DNA from: Longimonas halophila | GTDB lineage: Bacteria > Bacteroidota > Rhodothermia > Rhodothermales > Salinibacteraceae | Length of the DNA stretch: 24,000 bases | Direction of reading: 5' to 3' | NCBI RefSeq assembly: GCF_002554705.1 | Contig: NZ_PDEP01000008.1 | Location: forward strand, 40,106-64,105 | Shown: in pieces, positions 4,634-23,065 of the stretch | How the letters are laid out: each line of letters begins with the position of its first letter | Numbering within the stretch: the stretch's first letter is position 1 | Position numbers and translations under genes: made by a program | Notes under the pieces: model-generated | Database searches by the model: none | Seen by the model: only the letters and a program-made list of their open reading frames with translations | What the model was told of the DNA's origin: nothing

Positions 4634-4751
4634 ACGAGCGCCCACAGCCAGCATTTGCACGTTGCAAACAAAGATGCAGAGCTACGTTGCGATGACAGGC
4701 GATATGCGTCTGTACAATGTAGAATAGAGACAAAACAACAGAAACAAACCA

Positions 4752-5132
4752 ATGACTCGTTTTCCCTACGACCGGAATCTGCGTCCGTTGGCTCGGGCAC
4801 TCCGGAAAAACATGACGAAGAGCGAGAGACGTCTGTGGACACATCTGCGACGGAAACAGCGTGGCTACACCTTCAACCAGCAGTTTATCATTGGGCGTTA
4901 CATCGTGGATTTCTATGCGCGTCAGCTGCGTCTGGCGATTGAGGTGGATGGCGTTACGCATGACTATGAACAGGGCGATGGCTCTGACGCGGAACGACAG
5001 CGTGCACTGGAGGCGCTTGGGATCACTATGCTCCGATTTTCTTCAACGCGCATCTTTAAAGATTTGGAGCAGGTGCTGTATGAGATTGATGCTTGCATTG
5101 ATGGCTGTGAGCGTAAAAGAAGAAGTCAGTGA
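4752..5132 (+). CDS. DUF559 endonuclease-domain protein (Vsr-like PD-(D/E)xK fold), divergent paralog
   Basis: 126-aa ORF with the typical DUF559 pattern: LRKNMTKSERRLWTHLR..., ..YIVDFY.., ..LAIEVDG..H, ..ERQRALEALG..MLRF. Confidence 0.85.
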   Translation: MTRFPYDRNLRPLARALRKNMTKSERRLWTHLRRKQRGYTFNQQFIIGRYIVDFYARQLRLAIEVDGVTHDYEQGDGSDAERQRALEALGITMLRFSSTRIFKDLEQVLYEIDACIDGCERKRRSQ

Positions 5133-5163
5133 CTGTAGTGATTTTGTGCTGTGTGTACCAAAC

Positions 5164-5269
5164 ATCCCCCTTAATCCCCCTTCAGCGAAGGGGGAGACAA
5201 GTGGAAGGGCACGGCTTCAAGCTGCTCCCCTGGAGAGGGAAGCTGTCGCATTAGCGACTGAGGGGTGGA
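5164..5269 (+). repeat. Hairpin modules 3' of DUF559 copy 1 (A-like hairpin TCCCCCTTCAGCGAAGGGGGA plus a module 3 twin hairpin)
   Basis: Direct sequence similarity to the module A hairpins at 13010, 13603 and 17470, and to the module 3 copies. Confidence 0.8.
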
Positions 5270-5880: not shown

Positions 5881-6044
5881 GTGAGGTCTTGTGCCGAGTG
5901 TGTGGGAGATCCTTCGATGCGGCACCGGCTGTTGCCGCTGCCTTGCTCAGGATGACATCGTGATGGGAGGTACAGTATTGAACGCACGGCCTCAACCCGC
6001 TCCCCTGGAGAGGGGAACTGTCGCGTAAGCGACTGAGGGGTGGA
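5881..6044 (+). repeat. Composite hairpin-repeat element (module 2 plus module 3, no module 1)
   Basis: Carries GGGAGATCCTTCG..GCTCAGGATGACATC, then GGAGGTACAGTATTGAA (shared with copy A), then the twin hairpin. Confidence 0.85.
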
Positions 6045-6246
6045 ATCGGCTACCGCCGCCGCTGAAGATGAGGCGGTGTGCGAAACAAGCGAGCCGATGG
6101 CGCGCCCCGAATCGAATTCGCGGTACAGGAACGCCCTCTGTGTAACATCCACGTGTCATTCATAGCACAGCCTACGCATCCGTCCATATCTTTCATATAT
6201 TTTAGCGTTACACACAGGCCCCTCCACAGACCCGCTGCAACACATC

Positions 6247-8906: not shown

Positions 8907-9530
8907 ACTGGAGCCAACGGTCCCCCGTTGGCGCGGCGTCGCGGCCCGAGACGCGTGAACTCGCCCGGGACGTCCGCTACGCTCCCAGTCCCGGGCTACT
9001 GTCGGCGTTCCGTGTCGGAGAAATCAGTAGCGGGGGGGGCGTCCCGCGCACGACGAGGAAGGCCGAGGACGCGAGCGGTGACGACAGTGGTCGGCAGGAC
9101 ACACGCCGGGAACGTCGCTGTGCTCCAGTCCCCGGCTACTACCTTAGGTATCAAGTCCCTTCTCCCGGGGGGAGAAGGACAGGATGAGGGGAATCCCACC
9201 CAGCAAATGGTGCTCACCTTGTGGCAAGGTACAACAGGCATGACCCGTCCCATCTCCCTACGCTCGCCGCAAGGCGCAACCAGCATGACTTACGGGTCTC
9301 CTCTTTGCCTTATGACGCTCCCGTTGAGGGGCTCCGTCCCGTCTGAGCTGTTGAGGATTGTAAGTAGATCCAGGTGGGGCCTCGTGCTAAGCCCGTAGGA
9401 GATCCTTCGGCGCCGCACCGGCTGTCGCCGCTGCTCTGCTCAGGATGACATCATGGTGGTGGGGGATGTGGGGGAAGGCGTAAACCACAAATCGCTCCTC
9501 TGGAGAAGGGAACTGTCGCGAACGCGACGG
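8907..9530 (+). repeat. Hairpin-module array, colinear paralog of 14614-15106
   Basis: Module order: ACTGGAGCCAACGGTCCCCCGTTGG, module 4 (8962-9077), a second CCGGGAACGTC..CCCCGGCTACT unit, GGGGAGAAGGACAGGATGAGGGG, CAAGGCGCAACCAGCATGAC, AGGGGCTCCGTCCCGT, module 2, then degenerate module 3. Confidence 0.85.
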
Positions 9531-9608
9531 ACGCGTGCACGCCTGCAACAAAAAGGTGGAGCACACACAGGGAGTGCTCACCATACGAACGAATAGGCTT
9601 TGGCAGAC

Positions 9609-9653: not shown

Positions 9654-9902
9654 ATGGCTACCATTGCCCATCGCATAGAAGTTGATCCTGAGGTGCATCA
9701 CGGCAAGCCCGTCATTGCAGGCACCCGGGTTCCTGTTCACATGGTGCTTGGCCTCTTGGGAGAAGGGGTCTCTATCAGCGAGATCATCAACGAGTACTAC
9801 GACCACATCACACGTGAGGATGTCTTAGCCTGCATCCGGTACGCCCATACCGTTGTGCAAGAGGAAGAGGTCTATGCCACATCAAAGCCCGCCAGAAAGT
9901 GA
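9654..9902 (+). CDS. DUF433 domain protein (putative antitoxin)
   Basis: 82-aa ORF with the DUF433 pattern: I.VDPEV.HGKPVIAGTRVPV..VL..L..G.S..EI...Y..IT.EDV.A...YA. Confidence 0.85.
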   Translation: MATIAHRIEVDPEVHHGKPVIAGTRVPVHMVLGLLGEGVSISEIINEYYDHITREDVLACIRYAHTVVQEEEVYATSKPARK

Positions 9903-10278
9903 GGAATCGAACCAGGAACCGGTGTTTCTTGCGGATGAATGCACATTTACGCAGACCGTTCGAATGATGCGAGCAGCAGGATGCACGGTACATCGTGTTC
10001 AAGATCTCGGTATGGCGGGCGCACCGGATGCCGAGGTCTACCAGACGGCCTTAGGTAAAGAAGCTGTTCTGGTGACGACCGATCGTGGGTTCGGCGATGT
10101 CCGCTCGTATCCTCCCTCATCCCATCACGGCATCATCGTACTCAACGTCTCTCCTGATCCAGGGCAAGTCCGCGCTGTGCATCGCACGTTAACGATGATG
10201 CTCCAAACGGAGACCTCGTTCGCCGGAACGCTCTTCATCGTCGATGGAAAGAAGTACAGGAAACGCAAGCAGCCCTAA
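9874..10278 (+). CDS. DUF5615 family PIN-like nuclease (putative toxin partner of DUF433)
   Basis: Pattern FLADE....V..MR.AG..V..V.DLGM.GA.D.EVY..A....AVLVTTDRGFGD. The start is ambiguous: ATG 9853, ATG 9874 or GTG 9922. All of them overlap or abut the DUF433 gene. Confidence 0.8.
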   Translation: MPHQSPPESEESNQEPVFLADECTFTQTVRMMRAAGCTVHRVQDLGMAGAPDAEVYQTALGKEAVLVTTDRGFGDVRSYPPSSHHGIIVLNVSPDPGQVRAVHRTLTMMLQTETSFAGTLFIVDGKKYRKRKQP

Positions 10279-10280
10279 AG

Positions 10281-10564
10281 CGGTCGGCACAAAGCACTCG
10301 GCTATGGAAAGCGCCCCCCCAATCAAGTCATCCCGGACTTGATCCGGGATCCAGAAGGTGCTGAGGTCGCAGGCATTGTGCTGAGCGTGTGGGAGATCCT
10401 TCCCCCGACAGTAGTCGGGGCGACGGCGGTCGGACTTTTCGTCTCCGTGGCGCATCTGCGCCGCTCAGGATGACATCGGGGTGGGGGGAGGTTCAGAGGG
10501 GAAGGTGCCCTCCAACCCGCTTCCCTGGAGAGGGAAGCTGTCGCGCCAGCGACTGAAGGGTGGA
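10281..10564 (+). repeat. Composite hairpin-repeat element, copy B (leader, module 1, long-form module 2, module 3)
   Basis: Colinear with 15433-15668, except that the module 1 hairpin is present here and absent there. Confidence 0.9.
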
Positions 10565-10573
10565 TGTGCATGT

Positions 10574-10695
10574 GACGCCCGGGACGTCCGCTACGCTCCC
10601 AGTCCCGGGCTACTGTGGGCTTTCTGTGTCGGAGAAATCAGTAGCGCGGGACTGGCACGTCCCGCGCATGACGAGGAAGGGCGAGGACGCGAGCG
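10574..10695 (+). repeat. Module 4 (about 120-nt triple-hairpin module)
   Basis: GACGCCCGGGACGTCCGCTACGCTCCCAGTCCCGGGCTACTG...CAGTAGCGCGGGACTGGCACGTCCCGCGC...GAGGACGCGAGCG. It is nearly the same as 8962-9077. Confidence 0.9.
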
Positions 10696-10720
10696 AGCCC
10701 TGGCTACGGAAGCACCCTCA

Positions 10721-10925
10721 TCAAGTCATCCCGGACTTGATCCGGGATCCAGGAGATGCTGAGGTCGCAGGCATTGTGCTGAGCGTGGAGGAGATCCTTC
10801 GACTCTGCAGATGCTTGGCGCATCTGCGCCGCTCAGGATGACATCGGGGTGGGGGGGGCGAAGGTGTAAACCCCAACCCGCTTCCCTGGAGAGGGAAGCT
10901 GTCGCGCCAGCGACTGAGGGGTGGA
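10721..10925 (+). repeat. Composite hairpin-repeat element, copy C
   Basis: The same module order as copy A (4421-4633), with 4 differences in the first 125 nt. Confidence 0.9.
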
Positions 10926-11178
10926 TAAAGCTGCCGGAGACGCAACCGACCTTCGAAAGCACTCGGCACAACTCCCCCACCTAAGAGAATCGCCCACCTT
11001 CCCCCTAACCGTCCATCCCTCCACCCATCCATCCCTCCACCCCTGAACCCCGCATCCACACGCAATTCAACGAAACCGCAACGCATCCGTCTGATATATG
11101 ATGCGGCATACGTTGTGCGGTGCATTACACCGTACACAACCACTTCTACTGACCTGCACTCACGCCCGCTCCCACTTT

Positions 11179-12978
11179 ATGAGCACCTTTCGTGACCTTC
11201 TGGGCTATCTCCGCACGTACCGCCGGTACATCGGGCGCCGCATATACCTGGTGTTTGTGCTGACCATTGCCACGGCCTTTGCCCAGGGCTTCGGCATCAC
11301 CATGCTCCTGCCGCTGCTGCGCGCCTCGCAGTCCGGCGGACCCGCCGAGGACATGGGCACCGCCGAGGAATTGCTCTACAGCTTCCTGGAGCTGCTGGGC
11401 ATTGCCGACTCGATGGTGGGGATCTTGGGCCTGATTGCATTCATCTTTATTGCAAAAGGGGGCTTAGCATTTGCCAAGGGCGGATACATTGGCTACTTGC
11501 AGTCACGACTGCTGCGGGAGCTGAAAACCAAGCTCTTCGATGCCTACAGCCGCATGGATTACCGGTACTACATCAAGCAGAATGCCGGGCACTTCATCAA
11601 TGTCATTAACGGGCAGGTGAACCAGTTCTTTCAGTCATTTCAGAACTTTACAGGTTTCCTGACACAGGCTGTCACGGCGATTAGCTACTTCGGTTTTGCG
11701 TTCTTCATTGCGTGGAACTTTGCGCTGATGGCGATTGGTGTGGGGCTCGTGCTGCTCTTCTTGTTTAAGTACCTGAACGCCTATGTGCGCCGCCTTTCGC
11801 GAATGCGCTCGCGCGAGATGAGTGAGCTCAATAAGCTGCTCGTGCAGTCGCTACAGTCGCTGAAGTATATCGTATCCACAAACCAGACCGCCCACCTGCG
11901 TACTGGCGTGCTGGGTAGTGTGAAGCGCCTCACCAGCTACATCTTTAAACAGCGCATTGCAGGAGCGTTTACCAGCTCGCTTAAAGAACCGGTGTCTGTG
12001 CTGCTGATCATTGGATTGATCATCGTGCAGGTCACGGTCTTTGAGGATCCGATTGCTCCGATCTTTGTTGCGCTCTTGCTCTTCCACCGGGGAATGCAGG
12101 CGATGATCTCTATTCAGAGCGGCTGGCAGCAGACGATGGATAAGATCGGCTCCGTTGAGATGGTCGATGACGAGTTCGACATGGTGCATAAGCACAGAGA
12201 AGAGACGGGATCGCATGTGCTGGAGCCACTCCACCGCTCCATCGAACTGGACAACGTGTCGTTTGCCTATGGGGAAGATGAAGACCATGCGCTGCGCGGT
12301 ATTAGCCTGACTATCCCCGCCAACACCACCGTGGCCCTGGTGGGCGAGTCGGGCGCGGGTAAGTCGACGCTGGTCGATATGCTCACGCTGCTCCTAAAGC
12401 CGGATACCGGCACGGTGGAGATCGACGATGTGCCACACCCTGAGATCGACCTCAACTCATGGCGCTCGCAGATTGGCTACGTATCACAGGAGACGGTCGT
12501 CTTCGACGATACCATTGCCAACAACATCAGTCTCTGGCAGGGCAACATTGAGGACGATCCGGAGCTCCGCGATCGCATTCACGATGCCGCTAAGCGTGCC
12601 TACGCGCATCACTTCATTGAGGACCTGCCGAACGGCTACCAGACAGTCGTGGGCGACCGCGGCGTGCGGCTCTCGGGCGGACAACGCCAGCGGCTCTTTG
12701 TGGCGCGCGAGCTCTTTAAGCGTCCCAACCTGCTCATCTTAGACGAAGCCACAAGCGCGCTGGACACGGAGTCGGAGCGCTACATCCAGGACAGCATCGA
12801 TGCGCTGAAAGGCGAGATGACGGTGGTGATCATCGCGCACCGCCTCTCTACCATCAAGAATGTGGACTACGTCTACGTTATGGACGAGGGCGAAGTCATC
12901 GAAGAAGGCCCCTACACGGACCTCCGCAACCACGACGGCTCCCGCTTTCAGGAGATGGTGGAGATGCAGCGGTTGTAG
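11179..12978 (+). CDS. ABC transporter, fused permease/ATP-binding protein (MsbA-like exporter type)
   Basis: N-terminal multi-pass TM domain. Walker A GESGAGKST, signature LSGGQRQR, Walker B LLILDEATSALD and H-loop IIAHRL are all present. Start chosen at ATG 11179 (MSTFRDLLGYL...) rather than the ORF-track start at 11098. Confidence 0.9.
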   Translation: MSTFRDLLGYLRTYRRYIGRRIYLVFVLTIATAFAQGFGITMLLPLLRASQSGGPAEDMGTAEELLYSFLELLGIADSMVGILGLIAFIFIAKGGLAFAKGGYIGYLQSRLLRELKTKLFDAYSRMDYRYYIKQNAGHFINVINGQVNQFFQSFQNFTGFLTQAVTAISYFGFAFFIAWNFALMAIGVGLVLLFLFKYLNAYVRRLSRMRSREMSELNKLLVQSLQSLKYIVSTNQTAHLRTGVLGSVKRLTSYIFKQRIAGAFTSSLKEPVSVLLIIGLIIVQVTVFEDPIAPIFVALLLFHRGMQAMISIQSGWQQTMDKIGSVEMVDDEFDMVHKHREETGSHVLEPLHRSIELDNVSFAYGEDEDHALRGISLTIPANTTVALVGESGAGKSTLVDMLTLLLKPDTGTVEIDDVPHPEIDLNSWRSQIGYVSQETVVFDDTIANNISLWQGNIEDDPELRDRIHDAAKRAYAHHFIEDLPNGYQTVVGDRGVRLSGGQRQRLFVARELFKRPNLLILDEATSALDTESERYIQDSIDALKGEMTVVIIAHRLSTIKNVDYVYVMDEGEVIEEGPYTDLRNHDGSRFQEMVEMQRL

Positions 12979-12988
12979 ACTAACAAAC

Positions 12989-13154
12989 CAACCCCCTCTG
13001 CCTGTCGGCATCTCCCCCTTGACTAAGGGGGAGAGTCTTAAAGTGTATGGTTATTCGGAGCTTATGAGAGCTGCACACTAACGCAACGAACCTCCAAACT
13101 CCCCTCCTACCGGCGCCAGCCGGAAAGGAGGGGTGCCCGAAGGGCGGGGTGGTC
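12989..13154 (+). repeat. Module A' plus module B (left direct repeat flanking DUF559 copy 2)
   Basis: CAACCCCCTCTGCCTGTCGG..CTCCCCCTTGACTAAGGGGGAG..GTGTATGGTTATTCGGAGCTTATG..CCAAACTCCCCTCCTACCGGCGCCAGCCGGAAAGGAGGGG..GGGGTGGTC. It is colinear with 13553-13718. Confidence 0.9.
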
Positions 13155-13188
13155 CCGTGCACCAGCCAAACAAATTGGTCTTGAGCCT

Positions 13189-13545
13189 ATGCGATTACAC
13201 AACCGTAAATCACTGAAGCAACGCCGCAAAGAGCTTCGCAACAGCGCAACACCTGCAGAGGCCCAGTTGTGGAACGCATTGAAGAAACGACAGCTTGCCG
13301 GACGCAAGTTCAGACGACAGCATAGCATCGGACCATACATCGTAGATTTCTACTGTCCAGATGAGCGTCTTGCGATCGAACTGGATGGCGCCTCGCACGA
13401 TGGTCCACTCCGTAGCGAATATGATGCAGAGCGACAGGCGTACTTGGAAGCAAAAGACATTCGTGTCATTCGTTTTGAGAACAAGCAGGTGTTTGAGGAT
13501 CCAGACGGGGTGCTGGCGTACATCGAGAAGCAGTTTCGTGAGTGA
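13189..13545 (+). CDS. DUF559 endonuclease-domain protein (Vsr-like PD-(D/E)xK fold)
   Basis: 118-aa ORF with RKELRNSATPAEAQLWNALK...FRRQHSIGPYIVDFYC...LAIELDG.SH....YDAERQAYLEAKDIRVIRF. About 91% identical (107/118 by eye) to the 17056-17412 product. Confidence 0.9.
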   Translation: MRLHNRKSLKQRRKELRNSATPAEAQLWNALKKRQLAGRKFRRQHSIGPYIVDFYCPDERLAIELDGASHDGPLRSEYDAERQAYLEAKDIRVIRFENKQVFEDPDGVLAYIEKQFRE

Positions 13546-13552
13546 TAGGGAT

Positions 13553-13718
13553 CCAACCCCCTCTGCCTGTCGGGCTTCGCCGAAGGCGTGATCCTGTGGA
13601 CATCTCCCCCTTGGCTAAGGGGGAGAGTTTCGAGGTGTATGTTCATTCGGAGCTTATGGGAACTGAACGCCAAGGCGGCGATCTACCAAACTCCCTTCCT
13701 ACCGGTGTCAGCCGGAAA
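13553..13718 (+). repeat. Module A plus truncated module B (right direct repeat flanking DUF559 copy 2)
   Basis: The same order as 12989-13154, with an extra 28-nt sub-module GCTTCGCCGAAGGCGTGATCCTGTGGA. Module B breaks off after CCGGAAAG. Confidence 0.9.
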
Positions 13719-13795
13719 GATCGCTTCACCCAGCTTCTCCGCGATGACAGGCAGTGCTCGGTTGTTGCTGTGCGGGTCTGGTGTCGGCTCATGAG

Positions 13796-14005
13796 TCAGA
13801 ACGATCCCGGTGTTTTTTTGATGGCCTGCATGACATCACTAATAGAGGCGTCCTGCAGGCGCTCGCGCCGCTCAGCAGTATAATCTCCATCTCCCGTCGT
13901 AAATTGGTGGATAAACCGAGCCGTGTCCGACGGGCCCAATTCACGCGTCAAAACCCGGATGGCTTCTTCATTGATCTGATTCAGTGGTTTGGTGTTAACT
14001 TTCAT
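13796..14005 (-). CDS. Small hypothetical protein (69 aa), possible partner of the adjacent PIN gene
   Basis: ORF MKVNTKPLNQINEEAIRVLTRELG...DYTAERRERLQDASISDVMQAIKK lies in a lower-GC segment on the same strand as the PIN gene and just downstream of it. The family was not firmly recognised. Confidence 0.55.
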   Translation of the reverse strand: MKVNTKPLNQINEEAIRVLTRELGPSDTARFIHQFTTGDGDYTAERRERLQDASISDVMQAIKKTPGSF

Positions 14006-14168
14006 GGTGATACCACCCTGTGGATTATTAGATTGGTTGTGCGTTGTTGTGCGCAGGAGATGTACCCGTTGCGCTCAATGCGTTGCGTAATCCTCGACCC
14101 ATTCTACGGGAGTGAGCACCCGAGTGTCTTGGGTCTTAGAACCTGTTTTGATATGCCGTTAGAGGCGG

Positions 14169-14522
14169 CTAAGGGCCAATCGTAGTGACGCGAGCCGGAC
14201 CATGCACGGCTGCTGCCAGGTGCACGGCATCAACAGCTCCAATTCCCAGCTGTGAGTACTCCCGTGCCTTCTTTTCGACGGATGCTGTAACTTCTATAGT
14301 GTCTGTGGCAAGGGAAAGTACGTCATATGCAAACGCACGGCGTCTGGGATGTGGATTGTTCTCAGTTTCAACAAGCAGTATCTCACTGGAGAGAAGTTCT
14401 ATCTCACCGTTCTCGACGTGTTCAATAATTGCAAGAACAGCCTCCGATTCCAGCGCAATACGAAGCTGGGTCTGGTCATCGAAGGGACGCTGGATAGCAC
14501 ACGTGTCAAGGTAGATCGTCAT
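14169..14522 (-). CDS. PIN-domain (VapC-like) nuclease, apparently C-terminally disrupted
   Basis: N-terminal IYLDTCAI, then ESEAVL and VDAVHLAAA motifs. The ORF stops at ..RVTTIGP*, just where the last conserved acidic motif (TTDD-like) is expected. A different frame continues with a plausible PIN C-terminus down to 14075. Confidence 0.7.
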
Positions 14523-14613
14523 GCCTTGTAAGGTAGCTCTTCAGTAAAGAAGAGAAGATACTTAATTTGGTAGTGGATAGACCTTAAGTGATAGCCCTCT
14601 GATAAAAACGTTG

Positions 14614-15106
14614 ACTGGGGCGAACGGTCCTCCGTTCGTCCGCGCCGGAGACGTCCGCGCCAGTCGGCGCTCCCAGTCTCCGGCTACTGTCATGTTTCCT
14701 ACATCACTTAGCATTGAACCGCTACCCTTAATTTATGTCGTGGGTGTTTACAAAAGCGATTCAATTCAGGTTCTCGTATCCATGACCCGCTCGTCGCAAG
14801 GCACAACCAGCATGACCTGCGGCCCCTCCGCCTTGTGACGGTGCCCTTTAGGGGCTCCGCCCCGTGCATATTGTCGGGGATGCAGAGAAGACTTAGCATA
14901 CGCAGGAGTGTCGACGGCCGAAGGAGAGAGGGGGGATGCCGCACGTGCAGGGACGGCGTGTAGGAGATCCTTCGGCGCTGCACCGGCTGTCGCCGTTGCT
15001 CTGCTCAGGATGACATCATGGTGATGGGGAGGTTCGGAGGAGAAGGCACAACCCCCAACGGCTCCTCTGGGGAGGGGAGCTGTCGCGCAAGCGACTGAGA
15101 GGTGGG
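14614..15106 (+). repeat. Hairpin-module array, colinear paralog of 8907-9530
   Basis: ACTGGGGCGAACGGTCCTCCGTTCG, GGAGACGTCC..CTCCCAGTCTCCGGCTACTGTC, CAAGGCACAACCAGCATGAC, AGGGGCTCCGCCCCGT, module 2 (14963-15017), then module 3 (15061-15095). Confidence 0.85.
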
Positions 15107-15275
15107 CACGTCCCGCACGTGACGAGGAGCGTTGGAAATGCAAGCGAGATTCGGAAGTTTGCGGCAGGGTAGACGCCTGGATCCTGGATCTCCGTTCGCA
15201 AGCTCACTGCGTCCAGGGTGACACCCGAGTGGGGGCATTGAGTATAACATAAAGTTCAGCACCACGTACCAATGT

Positions 15276-15323
15276 GTCATCCCGGACAAGGTGCCCCTGG
15301 CACCGCTGATCCGGGATCCATTC
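15276..15323 (+). repeat. Expanded module 1 hairpin (TCCCGGA-[nested hairpin GGTGCCCCTGGCACC]-TCCGGGA)
   Basis: GTCATCCCGGACAAGGTGCCCCTGGCACCGCTGATCCGGGATCCATTC. An inverted copy lies at 5622-5669. Confidence 0.8.
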
Positions 15324-15432
15324 CCTGGCTAAGGTTGCTTTGCTTACGCTCGTCGCAAGGCACAATCAGCATGACCTATGGCCCCTCTGCCCCGTCCAGA
15401 TACCGCCGGGGATGCAAGCGGTACCGACGACA

Positions 15433-15776
15433 GTGGTCGGCACAGGTTACCCGGCTATGGAGGCGAGTGAAGCGTCGTGCTGAGCGTGTGGGAGATCCTT
15501 CCCCCCGACAGGAGTCTGGGGCGACGGCGGTCGGACTTTTCATCTCTGTGATGCATCTGCGGCGCTCAGGATAACATCATGGTGGGGGGCAGGTTCGGAC
15601 AGGAAGGCACAACCCCCAACCCGCTCCCCTGGAGAGGGGAGCGGTCGCGTCAGCGACTGAGGGGTGGGTGCGCATGCGACGCCCGAGACGTCCTTCCGAC
15701 CGCTGTCGGAATACCCGTCTCAGGCTAACTGTCCCTCAAACGGATATATCAGTAGCGCGGGACCCTCACGCCCACG
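15433..15776 (+). repeat. Composite array (leader, long-form module 2, module 3, degenerate module 4), colinear with 10281-10695
   Basis: Shared blocks: GTGGTCGGCACA..CGGCTATGGA.., GTGCTGAGCGTGTGGGAGATCCTTCCCCCCGACAG..GGCGACGGCGGTCGGACTTTTC..GCATCTGCGGCGCTCAGGATAACATC, the twin hairpin, then GCGCATGCGACGCCCGAGACGTCC. Confidence 0.85.
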
Positions 15777-15834
15777 TCTTCTTATACGGGAAGGCACCAC
15801 GTATCGCATCCCCCAGCACCCCTATTTTCAGTAC

Positions 15835-16899
15835 ATGGACGTTCCGTATCAAACCATCCTCGTCACCGGCGGCTGTGGATTCATTGGGTCGGCCCTCGTG
15901 CGGCATCTGATTCGCACCACCGACGCCCAGGTCGTGAACGTGGATGCGCTCACCTATGCCGGACATCCTTCCACCGTCGCACCGGTCGCGGATTCGGAGC
16001 GCTACACGTTTCTCCAGGCTGACATTGCCGACCGGGAGGCCATGCGGCAGGCGTTCGACACGCACGAGCCCGATGCGGTGATGCACCTGGCGGCAGAGTC
16101 GCATGTGGACCGCTCCATCGACGGCTCGGATGCGTTCTTGCAGACGAACATCGTGGGCACGCACACGCTTCTGGAGGTGACGCGGGCGTATCTGGACGCG
16201 GCGGATGCAGACGATTGGTTTCGGTTTTTGCACGTCTCCACCGATGAGGTGTACGGCGAGCTGGGTGATACGGGGTACTTCACCGAAGAGACGCCCTACG
16301 ACCCACGCTCACCCTACTCGGCCACGAAAGCGGCATCGGATCACCTCGTGCGCGCCTGGCACCACACCTACGGCGTGCCCACGCTCATCACCAACTGCTC
16401 GAATAACTACGGACCCTACCAGTACCCGGAGAAGCTTATGCCGGTGGTGATTCTGAAGGCATTGCAGCAGGAGCCCATTCCGGTCTACGGCACCGGCGAG
16501 AACATACGCGACTGGCTGTTTGTGGAGGACCATGTGCGTGCGCTGTGCCGGGTGCTGGCCGACGGCACCGTCGGCGAAACATACAACATTGGCGGACACA
16601 ACGAGAAGCAGAACATCGACGTTGTTCACGCAATCTGTGACATCTTAGACACCCTGCAGCCGGGGGCGGACTTGTCTTCCTACTGCGATCTCATTACCTT
16701 CGTAACCGATCGTCCCGGCCATGACCACCGCTACGCCATCGACGCCTCGAAGATTGAACGCGACCTGGGCTGGACGCCTGACGAAGACTTCGCAAGTGGC
16801 CTCCAGAAGACCGTTCAGTGGTATCTCGCCCACATCGACTGGTGCGAGACGGTGACGGCCGATACGTATGATCTGGGGCGACTGGGGACGGCGAGTTGA
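15835..16899 (+). CDS. rfbB: dTDP-glucose 4,6-dehydratase
   Basis: [12 protein letters not shown] Rossmann motif, a YSATKAASD catalytic region, and typical RmlB length (354 aa) from ATG 15835. The ORF-track start at 15664 lies inside the repeat array. Confidence 0.92.
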
Positions 16900-16914
16900 T
16901 ATATTTCAAACCTA

Positions 16915-16998
16915 TCCCTTCGGGCTTCGCTGAAGGCATGATTCTCTGGATGTCTCCCCCTTGGAAAAGGGGGAGAAACCCGAAGGGAGAGGGGGTTT
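16915..16998 (+). repeat. Module A variant (left flank of DUF559 copy 3)
   Basis: TCCCTTCGGGCTTCGCTGAAGGCATGATTCTCTGGATGTCTCCCCCTTGGAAAAGGGGGAGAAACCC.. is colinear with 17427-17495. Confidence 0.85.
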
Positions 16999-17055
16999 GA
17001 TCTAATGAGCGGTGATTAAAGCATCCATACCAAAAAAACACGATTGGGGGTGCGC

Positions 17056-17412
17056 ATGAAGTTACACAACCGAAAATCACTGAAGCAACGCCGCAAAGAG
17101 CTCCGCAACAATGCCACACCCGCTGAAGTCCAGTTGTGGAGTGCGCTAAAAAAGAGACAGCTCGCCGGACGCAAGTTCAGACGCCAGCATAGCATTGGGC
17201 CATACATCGTGGATTTCTACTGTCCAGGTGAGCGTCTTGCCGTTGAGTTAGATGGTGCCTCGCACGACGACCCGCTTCGTAGCGAATATGACGCAGAGCG
17301 ACAGACATATTTAGAGGCAAAAGACATTCGTGTCATTCGTTTTGAGAACAAGCAGGTGTTTGAGGATCCAGACGGGGTATTGACATACATTAAAAAGCAG
17401 TTTGATGAGTAA
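17056..17412 (+). CDS. DUF559 endonuclease-domain protein (Vsr-like PD-(D/E)xK fold)
   Basis: 118 aa from ATG 17056, about 91% identical to the 13189-13545 product. The ORF-track start at 17044 is a TTG 4 codons upstream. Confidence 0.9.
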   Translation: MKLHNRKSLKQRRKELRNNATPAEVQLWSALKKRQLAGRKFRRQHSIGPYIVDFYCPGERLAVELDGASHDDPLRSEYDAERQTYLEAKDIRVIRFENKQVFEDPDGVLTYIKKQFDE

Positions 17413-17418
17413 CGTGAA

Positions 17419-17621
17419 CAACCCCCTCTGCCTTTCGGGCTTCGCCGAAGGCGTGATCCTGTGGACATCTCCCCCTTGGCTAAGGGGGAGAGTTTTGCGG
17501 TGTAGGTTACTCCTAAATCATTGAAAACCCAACACCAACGCGACGAACCTCCAAACTCCCCCTCTTACCGGCGATAGCCGGAAAGGAGGGGTGCTCCGAC
17601 AACTGTCGGGGCGGGGTGGTC
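17419..17621 (+). repeat. Module A plus module B (right flank of DUF559 copy 3)
   Basis: CAACCCCCTCTGCCTTTCGGGCTTCGCCGAAGGCGTGATCCTGTGGACATCTCCCCCTTGGCTAAGGGGGAGAG...CCAAACTCCCCCTCTTACCGGCGATAGCCGGAAAGGAGGGGTGCTCCGACAACTGTCGGGGCGGGGTGGTC. Confidence 0.9.
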
Positions 17622-17667
17622 TCAACTTTACGTTGCACACTGATCTTCTCCATACACAATACACTTC

Positions 17668-18546
17668 ATGAAAGGCATTATCCTCGCTGGAGGAAGCGGT
17701 ACGCGGCTGTATCCGGTGACGCACGCGGTGTCGAAACAGCTTCTGCCTGTGCACGACAAACCGATGATCTACTACCCGCTGTCGGTGTTGATGCTGGCGG
17801 GGATTCGGGATATTCTCATCATCACCACGCCGCACGACCAGGAGGCGTTTCAGCGCTTGCTGGGCGATGGGTCGCACATTGGGGTGAACCTGCAGTACGA
17901 AGTACAGCCGGAGCCGAAGGGGCTTGCGCAGGCCTTTACGATCGGAGCCGACTTTATTGGTAATGATGATGTCGCGCTCATTTTGGGCGATAACATTTTC
18001 TACGGACAGGGCTTCGGTCCCATTCTGAAAGACACGGTCGCTGACTTAGACGGTGCAACGGTTTTCGGCTACCGCGTGCGCGATCCCAAGCGTTTCGGCG
18101 TCGTTGAGGTGGATGCGGAGGGCCGGGCGTTATCGATTGAGGAGAAGCCCGACAATCCCAAGAGCAACATCGCAGTAACCGGACTTTACTTCTACGACAA
18201 CCGCGTTGTGGACATTGCGCAGACCGTTGATCCCTCCGATCGTGGCGAACTGGAGATCACGTCGGTAAACAAGCGATATCTGCAGCACAATGCGCTACAC
18301 GTACGCACGCTGGGCCGCGGGTACGCCTGGCTCGATACCGGTACCCACGAGGCGATGAGTGAGGCTTCGCGCTTTGTGGAGATCATTGAGCGGCGTCAGG
18401 GCCTGAAGATCGCCTGCATTGAAGAGGTGGCCTGGCGGCAGGGGTGGATCAGTGACAGCGATCTGCGTGAGCAGGCAGAGGAATTGCGAAAAACGCAGTA
18501 TGGGGAATACCTCCGTAAGTTAGGTGACTCTGAAATCCATGGATAG
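17668..18546 (+). CDS. rfbA: Glucose-1-phosphate thymidylyltransferase
   Basis: [18 protein letters not shown]...[26 protein letters not shown] is a canonical RmlA signature, and the length (292 aa) fits. Confidence 0.95.
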
Positions 18547-18946
18547 TACGCTGGAGCGAGTAGAGGTTATAGATCTTCCGAAAGTCAAAGACGAACGTGG
18601 CAATCTGACGTTTGTGGAGAACGGAGATCTCCCGTTTGAGATGAAACGCGTCTACTGGATCTACGATGTTCCAGGCGGACAAGAGCGAGGCGGCCACGCA
18701 TTTAAACGCCAGCAGGAGGTGATTGTCGCGCTTTCTGGAAGCTTTAGTGTGAAGGTGAACGACGGAAAACAAAACGCCACGTACAATCTGAATAGGTCGT
18801 ATTATGGGTTGTACGTCCCTAACGGGCTGTGGCGCCATATGGAAGACTTTAGCACCAACGCGGTGGCTTTTGTCATTGCCTCTACATGCTACGACGAAGA
18901 TGACTATGTGCGCGATTTCAATCTTTTCAAGGAAAAAGCAGAATGA
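18539..18946 (+). CDS. FdtA/QdtA/WxcM-like cupin (dTDP-4-keto-6-deoxyhexose 3,4-ketoisomerase family), paralog 1
   Basis: About 135 aa with [13 protein letters not shown]....[13 protein letters not shown]....RGGHA. The start could be ATG 18539 (8-nt overlap with rfbA) or ATG 18524. Confidence 0.8.
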
Positions 18947-19809
18947 AGGTACGCCCTAATCTAATTATCCCAGGGTTTCCTAAAAGTGGTACAAGCAGCC
19001 TCTACCACTACCTCAGCCAGCATCCCGATATTGATGGCATTAAGGGAAAAGAGCCGCACGTCTTTTCGAAGGCGAGACAGTTTGAGAGAAGAGAAGAAGT
19101 ATTCAGGCGTCAATTTGATACCTCAACGCGGTTTAGGTACCGAATGGAGGCAAGTACGACATATATGATCACACCAGAAGCGCCTGAACGTATTGAACGT
19201 ACAGTACCAGATCCCAAGTTCATTATTATCGCTCGTGATCCGATTGAGCGCGTGTTCTCGCACTTCAACTGGCTCTGGTGCATGGGGCAGATTGAAAATG
19301 ACTTTCGTACTGAGATTCTGAAATGGGAGGAGAAGCCATATCATCCCGATGTCCACTTCGGAGGCAATTACAAGAATTATGTGGCCTTCTCAAGATATGG
19401 AGAGCAGTTCCAGCGATATCTGGATGTGTTTGAGCGAGATCAGATTCTTTACCTGACAACGGAGTCTCTAAAAACGTCTACCGAGACCGTCCTGCATAAG
19501 TGCCTCGATTTTCTTAACTTGGATCCTATTGAGGGAATTGACACACGCCGTCAGAACGTGACGAAGAAAAATGAAGTCGTCACGGCTCCTAATTTTTTGA
19601 TCCGACTCCGACAAGCACTGCCCGACGTTCTTTTTTCTCTTCCTGCTGTTAGTTATGTGAAGAAGTGGTTCACCAAAACGTATGAGCCTAAGGTTTTTGG
19701 CGTAGAGGAAGAGCAACTTGTGTATGATCTAATGGAGGATGATATCAGGTTGCAAGAGCGCCTGGGACTCTTGTCAGATGAGTGGAAGACGACACAGAAA
19801 TACCTGTAA
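18943..19809 (+). CDS. Sulfotransferase family protein
   Basis: N-terminal PAPS-binding 5'-PSB loop (IIPGFPKSGTSSL) and an IARDP..R..S 3'-PB-like motif. ATGA overlaps the upstream gene. GC is about 42% by hand count. Confidence 0.85.
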   Translation: MKVRPNLIIPGFPKSGTSSLYHYLSQHPDIDGIKGKEPHVFSKARQFERREEVFRRQFDTSTRFRYRMEASTTYMITPEAPERIERTVPDPKFIIIARDPIERVFSHFNWLWCMGQIENDFRTEILKWEEKPYHPDVHFGGNYKNYVAFSRYGEQFQRYLDVFERDQILYLTTESLKTSTETVLHKCLDFLNLDPIEGIDTRRQNVTKKNEVVTAPNFLIRLRQALPDVLFSLPAVSYVKKWFTKTYEPKVFGVEEEQLVYDLMEDDIRLQERLGLLSDEWKTTQKYL

Positions 19810-19810
19810 G

Positions 19811-20233
19811 ATGGAGCACCGGACGTCAGTTGAAAACTGCGAGATCGTATCGATCCCGAAAGTTAGTGACCGCCGCGGCAACCTGAGTGTTGTCCAGCAT
19901 GACGATGGGTTGCCATTTGAAGTACAGCGGGTGTTCTATATCTATGACATTCCCAGTGGAAAGAGCCGGGGGGAGCATGCACACTACGAATGCCACCAGC
20001 TTCTCATTGCTGCAAGTGGAAGCTTTTGTGTTCGGCTCGATGATGGAGCAGACACCAAGACCGTAGAACTTCGTCGTCCAGGCCAGGGGCTACACATTCC
20101 ACCTGGCATCTGGGCGGGAGAACGAGACTTTTCAGGAGGCGCGGTGTGTCTGGTGTTGGCCTCTCACTTTTACGACGAAGCTGACTACATCCGTGACTAC
20201 GATGCCTTCCTCGATTACGCTGCAAAACAATGA
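19811..20233 (+). CDS. FdtA/QdtA/WxcM-like cupin (3,4-ketoisomerase family), paralog 2
   Basis: [14 protein letters not shown]....[15 protein letters not shown]....RGEHAH. Start chosen at ATG 19811, right after the sulfotransferase stop. The ORF-track start at 19739 overlaps the upstream gene by 71 nt. Confidence 0.85.
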
Positions 20234-20769
20234 TCCACGAAACGGCTGATGTGCAAACCGAGGCTATTGGGGACGGCACGACCATCTGGCAGTTCTGTGT
20301 GGTGCTACCTGGTGCCCAGATTGGCGCCCGGTGTAACATCAACTGCCACGTCTTTATCGAGAATGATGTTGTGATTGGGAATGATGTGACGGTCAAAAGC
20401 GGCGTGCAGGTGTGGGACGGAATCACACTGAAAGACCAGGTCTTCGTGGGGCCGAATGCGACGTTCACAAACGACGCTGCGCCACGCTCGAAGCAGCACC
20501 CCGAGGCGTTTGAGCGAACTATTGTAGAGCAGGGGGCATCAATTGGAGCGAATGCTACGATCCTCCCCGGGCTCCGCATCGGGCATCACGCAATGATTGG
20601 AGCAGGTGCTGTCTTGACCAAAGATGCCCCGCCTCATACGGTGTGGTTTGGTAATCCTGCCAAACATCGCGGCTATGTCACAAGAGACAAAACCATGCTT
20701 GGTCCCAATCTCGTAGACGAAGATGGCAACCAATACATCCTTGAAGAAGAAACGCCCGTCCTGCAATGA
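20230..20769 (+). CDS. Left-handed beta-helix (hexapeptide-repeat) N-acetyltransferase, FdtC/QdtC-like
   Basis: Hexapeptide repeats ([52 protein letters not shown]) and an ATGA overlap with the upstream isomerase gene. Confidence 0.85.
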
Positions 20770-21935
20770 TCAAGTTCTTAGATCTACAAGCCATCAATGC
20801 TACATACCAAGACGAACTTCATGAGGCCGCACGCCGCGTGATCGATTCGGGGTGGTATCTGCTTGGCAGCGAGGTGGGCGCATTTGAGGAAGAGTTTGCA
20901 CAGTTTGTAGGTGCGTCTCAGGCCATTGGTGTTGGAAATGGACTGGATGCCCTGCGGGTCATTCTTCGCGCCTACAAAGAGCTTGGCGCGATGGAAGATG
21001 GCGACGAGGTAATCGTACCGGCCAATACGTACATTGCATCGATTCTGGCGATTACAGACAATGATCTAACGCCTGTTCTTGTGGAGCCCGATCCGGCATC
21101 CTACAACATCGATCCGGTTCGTATCGAGGCCAAGATCACGGATCGCACCCGGGCAGTGATGATCGTGCATCTGTACGGGCAGAACGCCTACACCAACCAG
21201 ATCGGCGAACTGTGCGAGACCCACGACCTCAAGCTGATCGAGGACGCTGCGCAGTCGCACGGGGCGTACTTTCAGGAAGCCCGCACAGGAGCACTCGGCG
21301 ATGCTGCCGGATTTAGCTTCTATCCAGGGAAGAACCTGGGGGCACTGGGGGATGCGGGGGCAATTACCACAGATGATGACGAGCTGGCCGAGACATGCCG
21401 CACACTGGCCAACTACGGGTCGGAGGTGAAGTACGAAAACAAGTACCAGGGCTACAACACGCGTCTTGATGAGATGCAGGCTGCCTTCCTTCGCGTGCGA
21501 TTGCAGCATCTCCCTGAGGAGAACCAGCGTCGTCGCGAGATTGCGCAGCAGTACCTGAGCGGGATTGAGCATCCTGATGTGGCCCTCCCGACGGTATATG
21601 ACTTCAGTGGGCCAGACAATGGGCCCGCTACTGTCGATTCATCTGCCAAACCGGTAACTGATGTGGATTCCCACGTATGGCACCTCTTTGTGTCGCGTCA
21701 TGCGGAGCGGGATGAGCTTCGGGCGTATCTTGATGAGCAAGGCGTTCAGACCCTTATTCATTACCCGATTCCTCCGCATCACCAGGAGGCCTATGCAGAC
21801 TGGAAGGAGAAGGACCTTCCAATCACTGAGCAGATTCATGAAGAGGTGTTCAGTCTGCCGATGGGGCCGCATCTCACGGATGCTGAAGTGAATGAAGTCA
21901 TCAAGGCTGTCAATAGCTATCCTGCCGCAGAGTAA
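20766..21935 (+). CDS. DegT/DnrJ/EryC1/StrS family PLP-dependent sugar aminotransferase (FdtB/QdtB-like)
   Basis: N-terminal IKFLDL.A........L..A..RV.DSGWY.LG.EV..FE.EFA..., then DAAQSHGA and [16 protein letters not shown] (PLP-lysine region). Confidence 0.9.
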
Positions 21936-21949
21936 ACCCGATTGCACGT

Positions 21950-23065
21950 ATGCCGTCCGAAGTAGAAATGCTGGACTTCGAAGCGTTCAAGGAGCGCTAC
22001 GAGAAGGTGCCTGTTGAAGAGTACCCAAACAACGTACGTGAGGCCGTTCCTGACCCTGTGGTTTCGGTTCACCTCCTGACCTACAACCATGCCGACTACA
22101 TACGGGAGGCAATCGAGAGCGTCCTCATGCAAGAGGTGGATTTTCCGATGGAAATCGTCTTAGGGGACGACGACTCCTCCGACGGCACGCGCGAGATCTG
22201 CATTGAATACGCCGAGCAGTACCCCGACCTGATTCGTCTGCAGCTCCACCACCGCGAGAATAACATCCACCTGCACGGCAGACCCACACACCTTTTCCAG
22301 TACTGGTATAACACGTTCAGTGCGCGAGGCAAATACATTGCAATTCTGTCGGGAGATGACTATTGGACGGATCCGTTGAAACTACAAAAGCAGCATGACT
22401 TCTTGCAGGCAAACAGTGAATATGCCCTCTCCTTCCATGATGCTAAAGTGGCCGCCGACAAAGGAAAGGTGGTCAGTGAGTCAAAAACGCCAGACGAGAA
22501 CAAGCGAGACTTCTCCTCCGAAGATATGATGAGTGGAGCATATTTTCCTGCGCTTTCTCTATTCGTACTGAACATATTTGAGCAAGTACCAGAGAAACTC
22601 ATTTTCTGTATCAATGAAGATAAAGTGACAATAAGTTTACTTGCCAGGTATGGCAAAGGTCATTTCCAAGAAGAGATTGACCCTGCAGTGTATCGCGTTC
22701 ATGATAGTAGTATCTGGAGTTCAAAAACTCCTCTAATTCGAGTAAAAGCGAATAATGATACACTAAAAAATATGCTATCAGTTTGTGATGACAGAAGTAC
22801 AAGAGAAGACATCGAAAGCAAAATATTAGGCTCCTGTGTTAGTCTGGTATCAAGACTAGTCTTCGCATGTGAGGTTGCGAAAGCCCTAAAAGAATTAACC
22901 GATACATTAATCCTGTTTGCAAAAAGAAAAAAGTTGTTTAACATGTTCTTGTTATTAAGTAATCTAACTCGATTTTTAGGAGGTAGCATAAAGAATTGCA
23001 TTCGAGCTAAATACTGGAGACTCATTCAGAAACTCGGTATGAGTGCTAAACCACAAACCCGATAG
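21950..23065 (+). CDS. Family 2 glycosyltransferase with an AT-rich C-terminal extension
   Basis: VSVHLLTYNHADYIREAIESVLMQ...EIVLGDDDSSDGT is a GT2 N-terminal signature with a DxD-like motif. The C-terminal third is hydrophobic and Lys-rich, and 23-38% GC. Confidence 0.85.
   Translation: MPSEVEMLDFEAFKERYEKVPVEEYPNNVREAVPDPVVSVHLLTYNHADYIREAIESVLMQEVDFPMEIVLGDDDSSDGTREICIEYAEQYPDLIRLQLHHRENNIHLHGRPTHLFQYWYNTFSARGKYIAILSGDDYWTDPLKLQKQHDFLQANSEYALSFHDAKVAADKGKVVSESKTPDENKRDFSSEDMMSGAYFPALSLFVLNIFEQVPEKLIFCINEDKVTISLLARYGKGHFQEEIDPAVYRVHDSSIWSSKTPLIRVKANNDTLKNMLSVCDDRSTREDIESKILGSCVSLVSRLVFACEVAKALKELTDTLILFAKRKKLFNMFLLLSNLTRFLGGSIKNCIRAKYWRLIQKLGMSAKPQTR

Follow-up and report, generated by a model that had tools for sequence, protein, structure and literature searches.

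The genes rfbB and rfbA, which code for a dTDP-glucose 4,6-dehydratase and a glucose-1-phosphate thymidylyltransferase, respectively, are separated in Longimonas halophila by 768 bp that contain a gene for a small DUF559 protein and several structured repeats, called here modules A and B. The question raised by this locus is what this cassette is, how it came to lie between the two genes, and whether the gene and the repeats around it belong together. The locus was studied in a window of 24,000 nt (the whole stretch of DNA analysed, whose numbering is used for all positions), which was compared with loci from other contigs and genomes, designated with L-numbers (L001, L085, etc.). The cassette is real, but its interest does not come from a fresh insertion into an operon. 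By analogy with the RAYT/REP systems (tyrosine transposases associated with repetitive extragenic palindromes), the spacer would probably, with considerable room for doubt, represent one copy of a cassette composed of a DUF559 nuclease and triplex-motif repeats, the nuclease and the repeats being a cognate pair.

Open reading frame (ORF) calls and Pfam matches confirmed that rfbB stops at 16899 and that rfbA starts at 17668. The rfbB gene (15835-16899, + strand) matches GDP_Man_Dehyd (E 1e-86) and Epimerase (E 1e-66); its start was placed by inference at an ATG, and the Pfam domain begins at residue 63-66 of the 411-aa ORF. The rfbA gene (17668-18546, +) matches NTP_transferase, and its product is 100% identical to the NCBI protein of L. 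halophila. The elements that a previous sequence-only reading had described between them, a module A variant (16915-16998), a DUF559 gene (17056-17412) and modules A and B (17419-17621), are all present. In our delimitation the module A variant, found with the triplex-motif finder and assigned to repeat family D11, covers 16906-16998 (+). It contains a complete triplex motif at 16953-16998 (+), namely TCTCCCCCTT GGAA AAGGGGGAGA AACCCGAAGGG AGAGGGGGTT, while its 5' portion (16906-16952) shows homology to the loop of the long form of module A and a degenerate minus-type third strand; the variant folds as a composite hairpin (z = -3.1). The 118-aa DUF559/YcjD-family gene (17056-17412, +; PF04480, E 1.3e-33) is followed by a module A of the long form (17420-17491, -; 94% identity to 13553-13640), which has an extra hairpin in loop 2 (GCCTTTCGGG..CCGAAGGC) and whose third-strand end reads AACCCCCTCT on the + strand. 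A variable linker (17492-17558, no strand), unconserved between cassettes and of a type that is swapped among loci, leads to module B (17559-17622, +; 17559-17620 according to the finder). This module consists of CCCCTCT..GGAGGGG and then the third strand GGGGTGG, carries the mini-hairpin CTCCGACAACTGTCGGGG in loop 2 and ends 45 nt before the rfbA ATG. The rfbA leader (17623-17667, +) is kept in L085, L086 and L087, with or without the cassette. The gene is therefore placed between an inverted pair, A(+) and A(-), which is followed by B(+), and the third-strand ends of the pair point toward the gene, 57 nt before its ATG and 7 nt after its stop.

The nature of the modules was approached with a sequence-agnostic finder that looks for 7-nt arms and uses block-shuffled sequence as control. 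A motif is defined by three blocks in a row: a pyrimidine (Y) arm, its complementary purine (R) arm and a third strand that repeats the R-arm in mirror order, G standing for G and either A or T for A. The finder recovered 11 motifs in the window versus 0.1 in block-shuffled sequence, and for 7 of them the nearest of the window's three DUF559 genes is no more than 130 nt away. The three blocks are present at 12990-13034 (-), 13101-13153 (+), 13555-13626 (-), 16953-16998 (+), 17420-17491 (-), 17559-17620 (+) and 5163-5195 (-). Module A turned out to be the same triplex motif as the A variant on the opposite strand, and the architecture of module B is CCCCTCC, a loop, GGAGGGG, a small hairpin and GGGGTGGT. 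The third block of the modules is the mirror of the purine arm with replacement of A by T, which is a signature of intrastrand purine-motif triplexes. Judged by this signature, the modules are predicted intrastrand purine-type triplex motifs of the BoxC/PIT/TM class (PIT, potential intrastrand triplex; TM, triplex motif), and not terminators. Once the mirror third strand was recognised, an earlier description of the modules as lineage-specific hairpins similar to REP or to bacterial interspersed mosaic elements (BIME), or as a palindromic fusion, was superseded. An integron attC site or gene cassette was also discarded, by inspection only, since neither GTTRRRY core sites nor an integrase were seen.

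The second loop of the motifs often holds a GNA/GNRA mini-hairpin. Of 59 distinct loop-2 sequences, 86% can fold with a stem of 4 bp or more, a share that drops to 36% after shuffling; most of the hairpin loops are GAA, GCA or GTA with a closing C-G pair. These C-G-closed GNA triloops in loop 2 are, we presume, more like DNA mini-hairpins. Searches against Rfam gave no match at gathering thresholds in the window and none relevant at E <= 1 in 12950-17700. The 27 copies of module B show 98% pairing with one compensatory pair; covariation in A and B is minimal because the modules are almost invariant, so that an RNA role is neither supported nor excluded.

BoxC was reportedly described by Bergler et al. 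in 1992, and the work on PIT elements is said to be that of Hoyne, Maher et al. in 2000. BoxC was first found beside envM (fabI) in E. coli, and was followed by the PIT elements and then by TM (Holder et al. 2015, PMC4666352). According to the same authors, strain MG1655 carries 23 TM_ECO, all of them intergenic and including five inverted pairs; TM loci are tied to increased rearrangement in E. coli, and mobility functions were never found next to TMs (PMC4666352). The Longimonas modules share with this class the pyrimidine arm, the complementary purine arm and the mirror G-rich third strand with A-to-T replacements, as well as a strictly intergenic position, the frequent occurrence as inverted pairs, the many copies and the location at variable loci. 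However, they differ from TM_ECO in their arms (CCCCTCC, TCTCCCCCTT, CTCCCCT) and in a longer second loop, usually with a mini-hairpin or, in the long form of module A, with a 38-nt insert. The TM_ECO consensus, CCCTCNCCC N3-6 GGGNGAGGG N3 GGGNGAGGG, is accordingly not matched by the Longimonas modules, in which both the arms and the loop lengths are different. In addition, no partner gene has been reported for the known TMs, whereas the Longimonas motifs bracket a nuclease gene.

The product of this gene is, as predicted from sequence and from a structural model, a small Vsr-fold PD-(D/E)xK nuclease of the YcjD/DUF559 family. The two 118-aa proteins of the window reach 115.5 and 116.7 bits with PF04480 (cut-off 20.6), over profile positions 2-107 of 109, and the third copy reaches 103 bits; a second Pfam match, MTES_1575, overlaps the DUF559 domain and is below its own cut-off. 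The DUF559 core is thus the sole domain of the 118-aa protein. The best sequence match is Neisseria gonorrhoeae NGO0050 (PDB 3HRL, family-profile E 1.6e-30), followed by the catalytic domain of I-Bth0305I (PDB 3R3P, family-profile E 8.4e-5). An AlphaFold2 model with a pLDDT of 89 found the same two structures as best Foldseek matches (3HRL with a target-normalised TM-score of 0.85; 3R3P with E 7e-5). Among 38 homologs, residues E64, G67, H70, D79 and R82 do not vary, and D53 and D66 hardly do. Vsr itself gave no Pfam match at E <= 0.001, the family profile does not find 1VSR/1CW0 at E <= 1, and the Foldseek match to 1VSR is marginal (E 0.08, TM-score of about 0.5).

These comparisons place the protein among several known nucleases. 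E. coli YcjD and NGO0050 belong to the same Pfam family and have the same size (about 117 aa), but the score with the NCBIfam YcjD equivalog model NF007294 (79.6 bits) is far from its cut-off of 218, and by this measure the window protein belongs to the family of E. coli YcjD without being its equivalog or ortholog. The EDxHD homing endonuclease I-Bth0305I has a related core and, like the window protein, an active-site motif of the E..D...H type; however, it carries an N-terminal NUMOD/helix-turn-helix (HTH) DNA-binding region and is associated with a group I intron, whereas the window gene codes for a bare, free-standing 118-aa core. Vsr and VsrA share the fold superfamily, and VsrA carries a DUF559 domain; in Caulobacter, VsrA is functionally tied to a 5-methylcytosine (5mC) methyltransferase and is SOS-induced (PMC12907096). 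The window protein is unlike Vsr in giving no Pfam or profile match to it, in being multi-copy and in having no methyltransferase nearby (none was detected among the 20 window ORFs scanned against Pfam), although such linkage is not obligatory, as VsrA illustrates (PMC12907096). Two other roles were considered and rejected: that of a defence system, for which PADLOC matches were only marginal (E about 3e-3), and that of a passenger of plasmids or phages, on which DUF559 homologs are rare (25 of 72,556 plasmids and 2 phages).

The pairing of DUF559 genes with triplex motifs is general across phyla. It was examined in 79 DUF559 loci (647 kb) from many phyla, which were picked by similarity to the window protein and include many Hymenobacter. 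A triplex motif lies within 150 nt of the DUF559 gene in 71 of the 79 loci, and on both sides of it in 40. Close to the gene the motifs reach a density of 6.73/kb, which is 42x the 0.161/kb of the remaining locus sequence and 6x the density in the other intergenic DNA of these loci (1.09/kb, a crude baseline). All together, 263 motifs were found in the 79 loci versus 2 in the block-shuffled loci, and 104 TMs lie away from the gene in the 647 kb. A strict module-B-like pattern is present beside DUF559 in 45 of the 79 loci, with no matches in shuffled loci, and its density is 3.73/kb within 150 nt of the gene versus 0.073/kb elsewhere (51x). The arrangement has a preferred geometry: of the 56 nearest downstream motifs, 43 are on the minus strand (p = 7e-5), the median distance to the gene is 51 nt on the ATG side and 15 nt on the stop side, and 22 of the 40 two-sided loci show a plus motif upstream and a minus motif downstream. 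Upstream motifs are plus in 34 cases and minus in 21.

Near-identical arms (CCCCTCC / GGAGGGG / GGGGTGG) occur beside DUF559 in Proteobacteria, Bacteroidota, Acidobacteria, Chloroflexi and Actinobacteria, and this shared sequence suggests that gene and repeat were inherited or transferred together. In an independent set of plasmids from Synechocystis, Deinococcus, Azospirillum and Sphingomonas, flanking TMs with lineage-specific arms were found in all four, the copies being inverted in Deinococcus and Sphingomonas. None of three control loci without DUF559 contained TMs. A scan of metagenomes with module B returned a single contig, and a scan of viral sequences returned none. A broader claim, that DUF559 flanks are more repeat-rich in general, was not borne out, since 30% of them are repeat-rich versus 30% of other intergenic runs; only the triplex-motif class is enriched. 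In the literature on DUF559, ycjD and intrastrand triplexes, no paper was found that links DUF559 or ycjD with triplex repeats, and the cross-phylum association of DUF559/YcjD with BoxC/PIT/TM elements is previously unreported.

Other arrangements of DUF559 genes were also seen. In another organism (L083:5960-6660) a DUF559 gene and two triplex motifs lie inside a small two-gene module of antitoxin-like and nucleotidyltransferase-like genes; on either side stands a direct repeat of about 45 bp derived from the interrupted gene (GAACGCGCATGAGGTCCGCTGCC..TCGTGGTCGGGGGATACGCCGT), which resembles an insertion footprint. A metagenome-assembled genome (MAG) of Bacteroidota (L047:5001-5817) shows a tandem DUF559 pair with triplex motifs after each gene.

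The same pairing is found in E. coli K-12, where the DUF559 gene ycjD is located between sapF and fabI (L093), with a canonical TM_ECO on the same strand 168 nt downstream of its stop. This copy fits the TM_ECO consensus (CCCTCGCCC CTCTG GGGAGAGGG TTA GGGTGAGGG). As in Longimonas, the gene has a TM alongside and varies in its presence; however, E. coli carries one copy of ycjD, while the Longimonas window carries at least three DUF559 genes in 24 kb. Among 5426 complete genomes, ycjD is present in 3378, and the 75-nt stretch of the ycjD-side TM has matches at 1-30 places per genome, with a median of 17. Salmonella is reported to be free of TM_ECO, and Enterobacter asburiae has 143. The gene and the TM segment are jointly present (in about 62% of the 5426) or jointly absent; other genomes (e.g. 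L101, strain APEC E19019) have the eefRABCD efflux operon, which has been described as an alternative occupant of the ycjD locus (PMC12817139). When a spread sample was compared, the median number of TM-like places was 19 where the ycjD-side copy was present (n = 37) and 12 in genomes lacking it (n = 22; Mann-Whitney p = 3.5e-7), and B2-like strains without this copy had only 1-4. This contrast in copy number is suggestive and is confounded by phylogroup.

How old is the cassette in the rfbB-rfbA spacer? The window contains a second cassette at 13 kb, behind an ABC-transporter gene. A short form of module A (12990-13034, -) begins 11 nt past the stop of that gene and is followed by a module B (13101-13160, +; 13101-13153 according to the finder) that ends about 30 nt before the ATG of a paralogous 118-aa DUF559 gene (13189-13545, +; PF04480, E 5.8e-34). 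A long-form module A (13555-13626, -) starts 9 nt past the stop of this gene, and a truncated module B (13686-13718, +), of which only the Y-arm and the inner hairpin are left, closes the cassette. The sequence-only reading had taken both cassettes as 91% identical copies of a duplicated unit of about 550 bp. The figure holds for the proteins (107 of 118 residues are identical, so the 11 differences then counted stand), but nucleotide identity in the ORF is 301/354, or 85%. The extent of the homology was correctly described: it begins about 15 nt 5' of the ATG, spans the ORF and module A, weakens in the linker and returns in B. The duplication itself is not recent. Between the two genes, differences at codon positions 1, 2 and 3 number 10, 7 and 36, and the NG86 estimates are 0.93 synonymous (dS) and 0.046 nonsynonymous (dN) substitutions per site, with a dN/dS (omega) of 0.05 (Fisher p = 2e-21). 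A recent 550-bp duplication is ruled out by this dS, by the uneven identity (94% over 88 nt in module A versus about 65% in the linker) and by the positional orthologs.

With respect to the latter, the ortholog of the 17-kb copy is the L085 copy (93% nt identity, dS 0.18), and that of the 13-kb copy is the L086 copy located after the ABC-transporter gene (92%, dS 0.30). For comparison, rfbA shows dS 0.65-0.73 to L085 and L086, and at the 17-kb site dS to L082 and L084 is above 1. Omega ranges from 0.04 to 0.28 across all DUF559 pairs compared, and the ORF is intact in 7 lineages. The clustering of positional orthologs together with the low omega indicates that the duplication is older than these species and that the gene is maintained by selection; the sequence-only reading had taken the intact ORF as an argument against a decaying relic.

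The arrangement found in the window is kept in several relatives. L085, a JGI contig whose RfbA is 91% identical, has the same order (rfbB, A variant, DUF559, A, B, rfbA), and rfbB-DUF559-rfbA is also found in L082, L084 and L094/95, where RfbA is about 80% identical; L090 retains DUF559-B-rfbA without rfbB, its DUF559 being frameshifted, possibly by long-read error. In the outgroup Salinibacter ruber (ABC transporter 65% identical), the gap between the ABC-transporter gene and rfbB is 39 nt and rfbB and rfbA overlap (TAATG); neither DUF559 nor modules occur at this homologous locus, so both window cassettes represent derived states. The proposal that an insertion split the rfbB-rfbA pair is thus borne out by the contiguous genes of the outgroup and by the repeat-bounded form of the cassette, but the event is not recent.

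The sequence-only reading had also suggested looking for empty sites in relatives, and empty or partly empty sites are present. In L086 (RfbA 91%) the rfbB-rfbA spacer has 111 bp and consists of a solo module B and the conserved rfbA leader. In L087 (RfbA 88%) there is an rfbB remnant, a long-form A, a linker of the 17-kb type, B and rfbA, and no gene. These empty or scarred states look like products of recombination between directly repeated modules that would have left a solo B or A+B. Exchange between cassettes can also be read from identities: between the window and L085 they are about 90% in the flanking genes, 98-100% in 17000-17250 and 52-66% in module A and linker. L085 has the short form of A, and its linker and the 3' end of its gene resemble the locus after uvrB in L002 (a Longimonas MAG). 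The mosaic 3' end of the gene, module A and linker confirms exchange between cassettes. Recombination between the flanking repeats accounts for how the cassette was duplicated, mixed and lost. Besides its intact copy, L086 has a second DUF559 gene (L086:4480-4610) lying between two A-B units, internally deleted, a decayed tandem copy that keeps the start (ATGTGATTACACA) and the end (GTTTCATGACTGA).

According to the explanation that we favour, the DUF559 protein would recognise or cut the structured triplex-motif repeat, and this action may maintain or spread the repeats, and its own gene along with them, by recombination. The repeats would act as portable homology through which the cassette could be duplicated, converted or deleted. 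Because the motifs do not appear to be terminators, rfbA would probably be read through or transcribed from a promoter in its conserved 45-nt leader. The closest known parallel is the RAYT/REP (REPIN) system, in which, as in the cassette, a single small nuclease-type gene lies between inverted copies of a short structured repeat, one that in L. halophila may likewise be dispersed through the genome; at the 17-kb gene these copies are A(+) (16953-16998) and A(-) (17420-17491). A further likeness is that the DUF559 gene is chromosomal, positionally stable and under purifying selection. However, RAYTs are HUH/Y1 transposases that act on single-strand hairpins with a GTAG motif, whereas the DUF559 protein lacks the HUH/Y1 fold and has a PD-(D/E)xK Vsr-like one, and its putative target is a three-block triplex-type element. 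Owing to this difference in fold, the DUF559 protein could only be an analog of RAYTs, not a member of that group. Other parallels concern the repeats: BIMEs in operons are mosaic modules placed right after stop codons, as at the window cassette, and in the formation of solo long terminal repeats (LTR) the internal segment is lost by direct-repeat recombination, leaving a solo repeat such as the solo B. In contrast to both, the cassette repeats are not REP or palindromic units (PU), and the internal segment is a selected protein-coding gene. A wider form of this explanation, that DUF559/YcjD proteins are dedicated nucleases of BoxC/PIT/TM repeats and thus a second, independently evolved system of the REP-RAYT kind, built on a Vsr-fold PD-(D/E)xK nuclease that would recognise a three-block DNA structure of hairpin and G-strand, is put forward only tentatively.

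Several observations weigh against the cognate-pair explanation. The link between DUF559 and the motif is an association based on proximity, not a mechanism, and the protein has no separate DNA-binding domain. The window copies, with their dS of 0.93 and stable positions, do not look as if they had moved recently. The 79 loci were picked for their likeness to the window protein, and their taxonomic spread is uneven; the enrichment is only about 6x over a crude intergenic baseline, and the generic repeat test was negative. The orientation of the motifs is mixed, as seen upstream of the gene, and the Longimonas-like copies of module B are all in + orientation. Modules A and B show weak covariation, helices 1 and 2 being nearly invariant and B offering a single compensatory pair. 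Finally, TMs persist (1-21 copies) in E. coli genomes without ycjD, and the copy-number contrast is confounded by phylogroup.

Some of these points would fit a different view, in which TMs are recombinogenic, fragile sites and DUF559 is an unrelated small gene that was captured or retained there without any specific tie between protein and repeat. The rearrangement associated with TM loci in E. coli (Holder et al., PMC4666352) agrees with it, as do the negative generic repeat test, the presence of other small cassettes (DUF433-DUF5615, MNT-HEPN, PIN) in the same repeat-rich loci and the occurrence of TMs away from DUF559 and after toxin-antitoxin genes (L002, L097). However, a hot spot for unrelated genes does not account for the 6x enrichment of TMs beside DUF559 relative to the remaining intergenic DNA in these loci, for a pairing in 90% of the loci across many phyla, for the preferred spacing and orientation (median distance of 15 nt past the stop, and 43 of 56 downstream motifs on the minus strand) or for nearly the same arms beside DUF559 in five phyla, which point to co-inheritance or co-transfer; we consider this view rather unlikely. 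It is improbable, too, that the protein is a housekeeping Vsr-like endonuclease for mismatches or damage, a role proposed for Caulobacter VsrA, with the flanking motifs as its own regulatory or transcript-end elements and the dispersed copies as look-alikes. Caulobacter VsrA, with its methyltransferase connection and SOS induction (PMC12907096), provides a precedent, and the long positional conservation, the purifying selection and the co-orientation of all module B copies with the flanking genes would be expected from such a role. Nevertheless, the 24 kb contain at least three DUF559 paralogs, neither Pfam nor the family profile gives a Vsr match, and no methyltransferase was found among the window ORFs scanned. 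The dispersed copies genuinely belong to the repeat family (a median of 17 TMs per E. coli genome and 8 copies of repeat family D2 in the window), and PIT elements reportedly have neither promoter nor terminator activity in E. coli (Maher and co-workers, as cited in PMC4666352).

The resemblance of the nuclease core to I-Bth0305I raises the question of a classical free-standing homing endonuclease gene, with the rfbB-rfbA junction or module B as target, that spreads by double-strand-break repair. Filled and empty alleles do coexist among the relatives, the repeats could serve as homology arms, and the 250-nt tract at 17000-17250 shows 98-100% identity to L085, compared with about 90% in the flanking genes. 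The protein, however, has only 118 aa and no NUMOD/HTH extension, and the gene is in no intron or intein; its long vertical persistence under purifying selection (dS above 1 to L082/L084) departs from a cycle of invasion and decay, and the empty alleles look like repeat-mediated deletions (solo B, A+B). There is, consequently, little to recommend homing. The sequence-only reading had asked how rfbA could be transcribed across four strong hairpins. Four hairpins do fold 3' of the 17-kb gene (minimum free energy -96 kcal/mol, z = -3.8), and if they were terminators or attenuators that split the operon, rfbA would need its own promoter and the cassette would mainly be a regulatory insertion. The GTTTTG that follows the A hairpin in some copies and the conserved 45-nt leader before rfbA could be taken in this sense, but the concern loses weight because the hairpins are not terminator-like: a scan of the + strand of 12900-17800 for intrinsic terminators found no hairpin-plus-T-run site, T-runs being of 4 nt at most and unconserved. 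The same motifs also stand between co-oriented genes at many loci, and PIT elements reportedly lack terminator activity in E. coli (PMC4666352). A mainly regulatory insertion is thus very unlikely. As regards a neutral relic of an old insertion, whose ORF would have no current function, decayed copies do exist elsewhere (internally deleted in L086, frameshifted in L090), but the dN/dS of 0.05 between the paralogs and of 0.04-0.28 in all pairs effectively refutes it, and the catalytic residues are invariant and the ORF intact in 7 lineages.

The third DUF559 gene of the window (4752-5132, +; 126 aa, Pfam E 9.5e-30) is divergent, with 41% identity. It is followed, 30 nt past its stop, by a triplex motif (5163-5195, -) and preceded by an element of the D2 family (4580-4632, +) composed of CTCCCCT GGAG AGGGGAG, GTCGC GCAA GCGAC and GAGGGGT. 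The D1/D2 repeat family, which flanks this gene, has the same three-block design as the modules. D2 has 8 copies in the window, the others starting at 5215, 5990, 9485, 10510, 10871, 15052 and 15614, and those at 10506-10562 and 15624-15665 were accepted by the triplex finder.

Other hairpin repeat families of a non-triplex type (e.g. GTCATCCCGGACTTGATCCGGGATCC, GAGATCCTTCG..GCTCAGGATGACATC, CGCCCGGGACGTCCGCTACGCTCCCAGTCCCGGGC) crowd the window in mosaic intergenic arrays at 4421-4660, 5881-6070, 9374-9540, 10323-10950 and 14939-15700. Small cassettes of the toxin-antitoxin type (DUF433-DUF5615, PIN, MNT-HEPN) occupy positions that vary among the polysaccharide loci of related genomes; they were seen at 9654-10278 and 14169-14522 (-) of the window, at 3303-3927 of L002, at 3709-4353 of L082 and at 414-2428 of L096, often with triplex motifs 3' of them. 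After rfbA, the window (18539-23065) carries genes for a dTDP-3-amino-3,6-dideoxyhexose-type pathway, namely two of the FdtA-like type, one for a hexapeptide acyltransferase and one for a DegT aminotransferase, among which sulfotransferase and glycosyltransferase family 2 (GT2) genes are interspersed. The gene content 3' of rfbA varies in every related contig, and the DUF559-B-rfbA junction is kept. In a Logan short-read assembly of the same strain, L001:1-202 corresponds to window positions 17466-17667; this contig begins within module A, which indicates that the module repeats break short-read assemblies at the cassette.

The BoxC/PIT/TM repeats have been known since 1992. They have been shown to adopt triplexes and to be located at unstable loci, but what spreads or uses them was not found. 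DUF559/YcjD, in turn, is a large family of unknown function that includes a gene of E. coli K-12. A tight pairing that crosses phyla and is geometrically regular merges both puzzles into one hypothesis that can be tested in a model organism. In the window, this pairing would explain the repeat-rich, assembly-breaking spacer found in a surface-polysaccharide operon, and the locus illustrates how cassettes may be gained and lost by repeat-mediated recombination in hypervariable glycan loci. If DUF559/YcjD proteins were indeed dedicated nucleases of these repeats, this would explain the spread of the repeats and their conservation across phyla, as well as the rearranged state of TM loci, and it would provide a function for the E. 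coli K-12 orphan gene ycjD.

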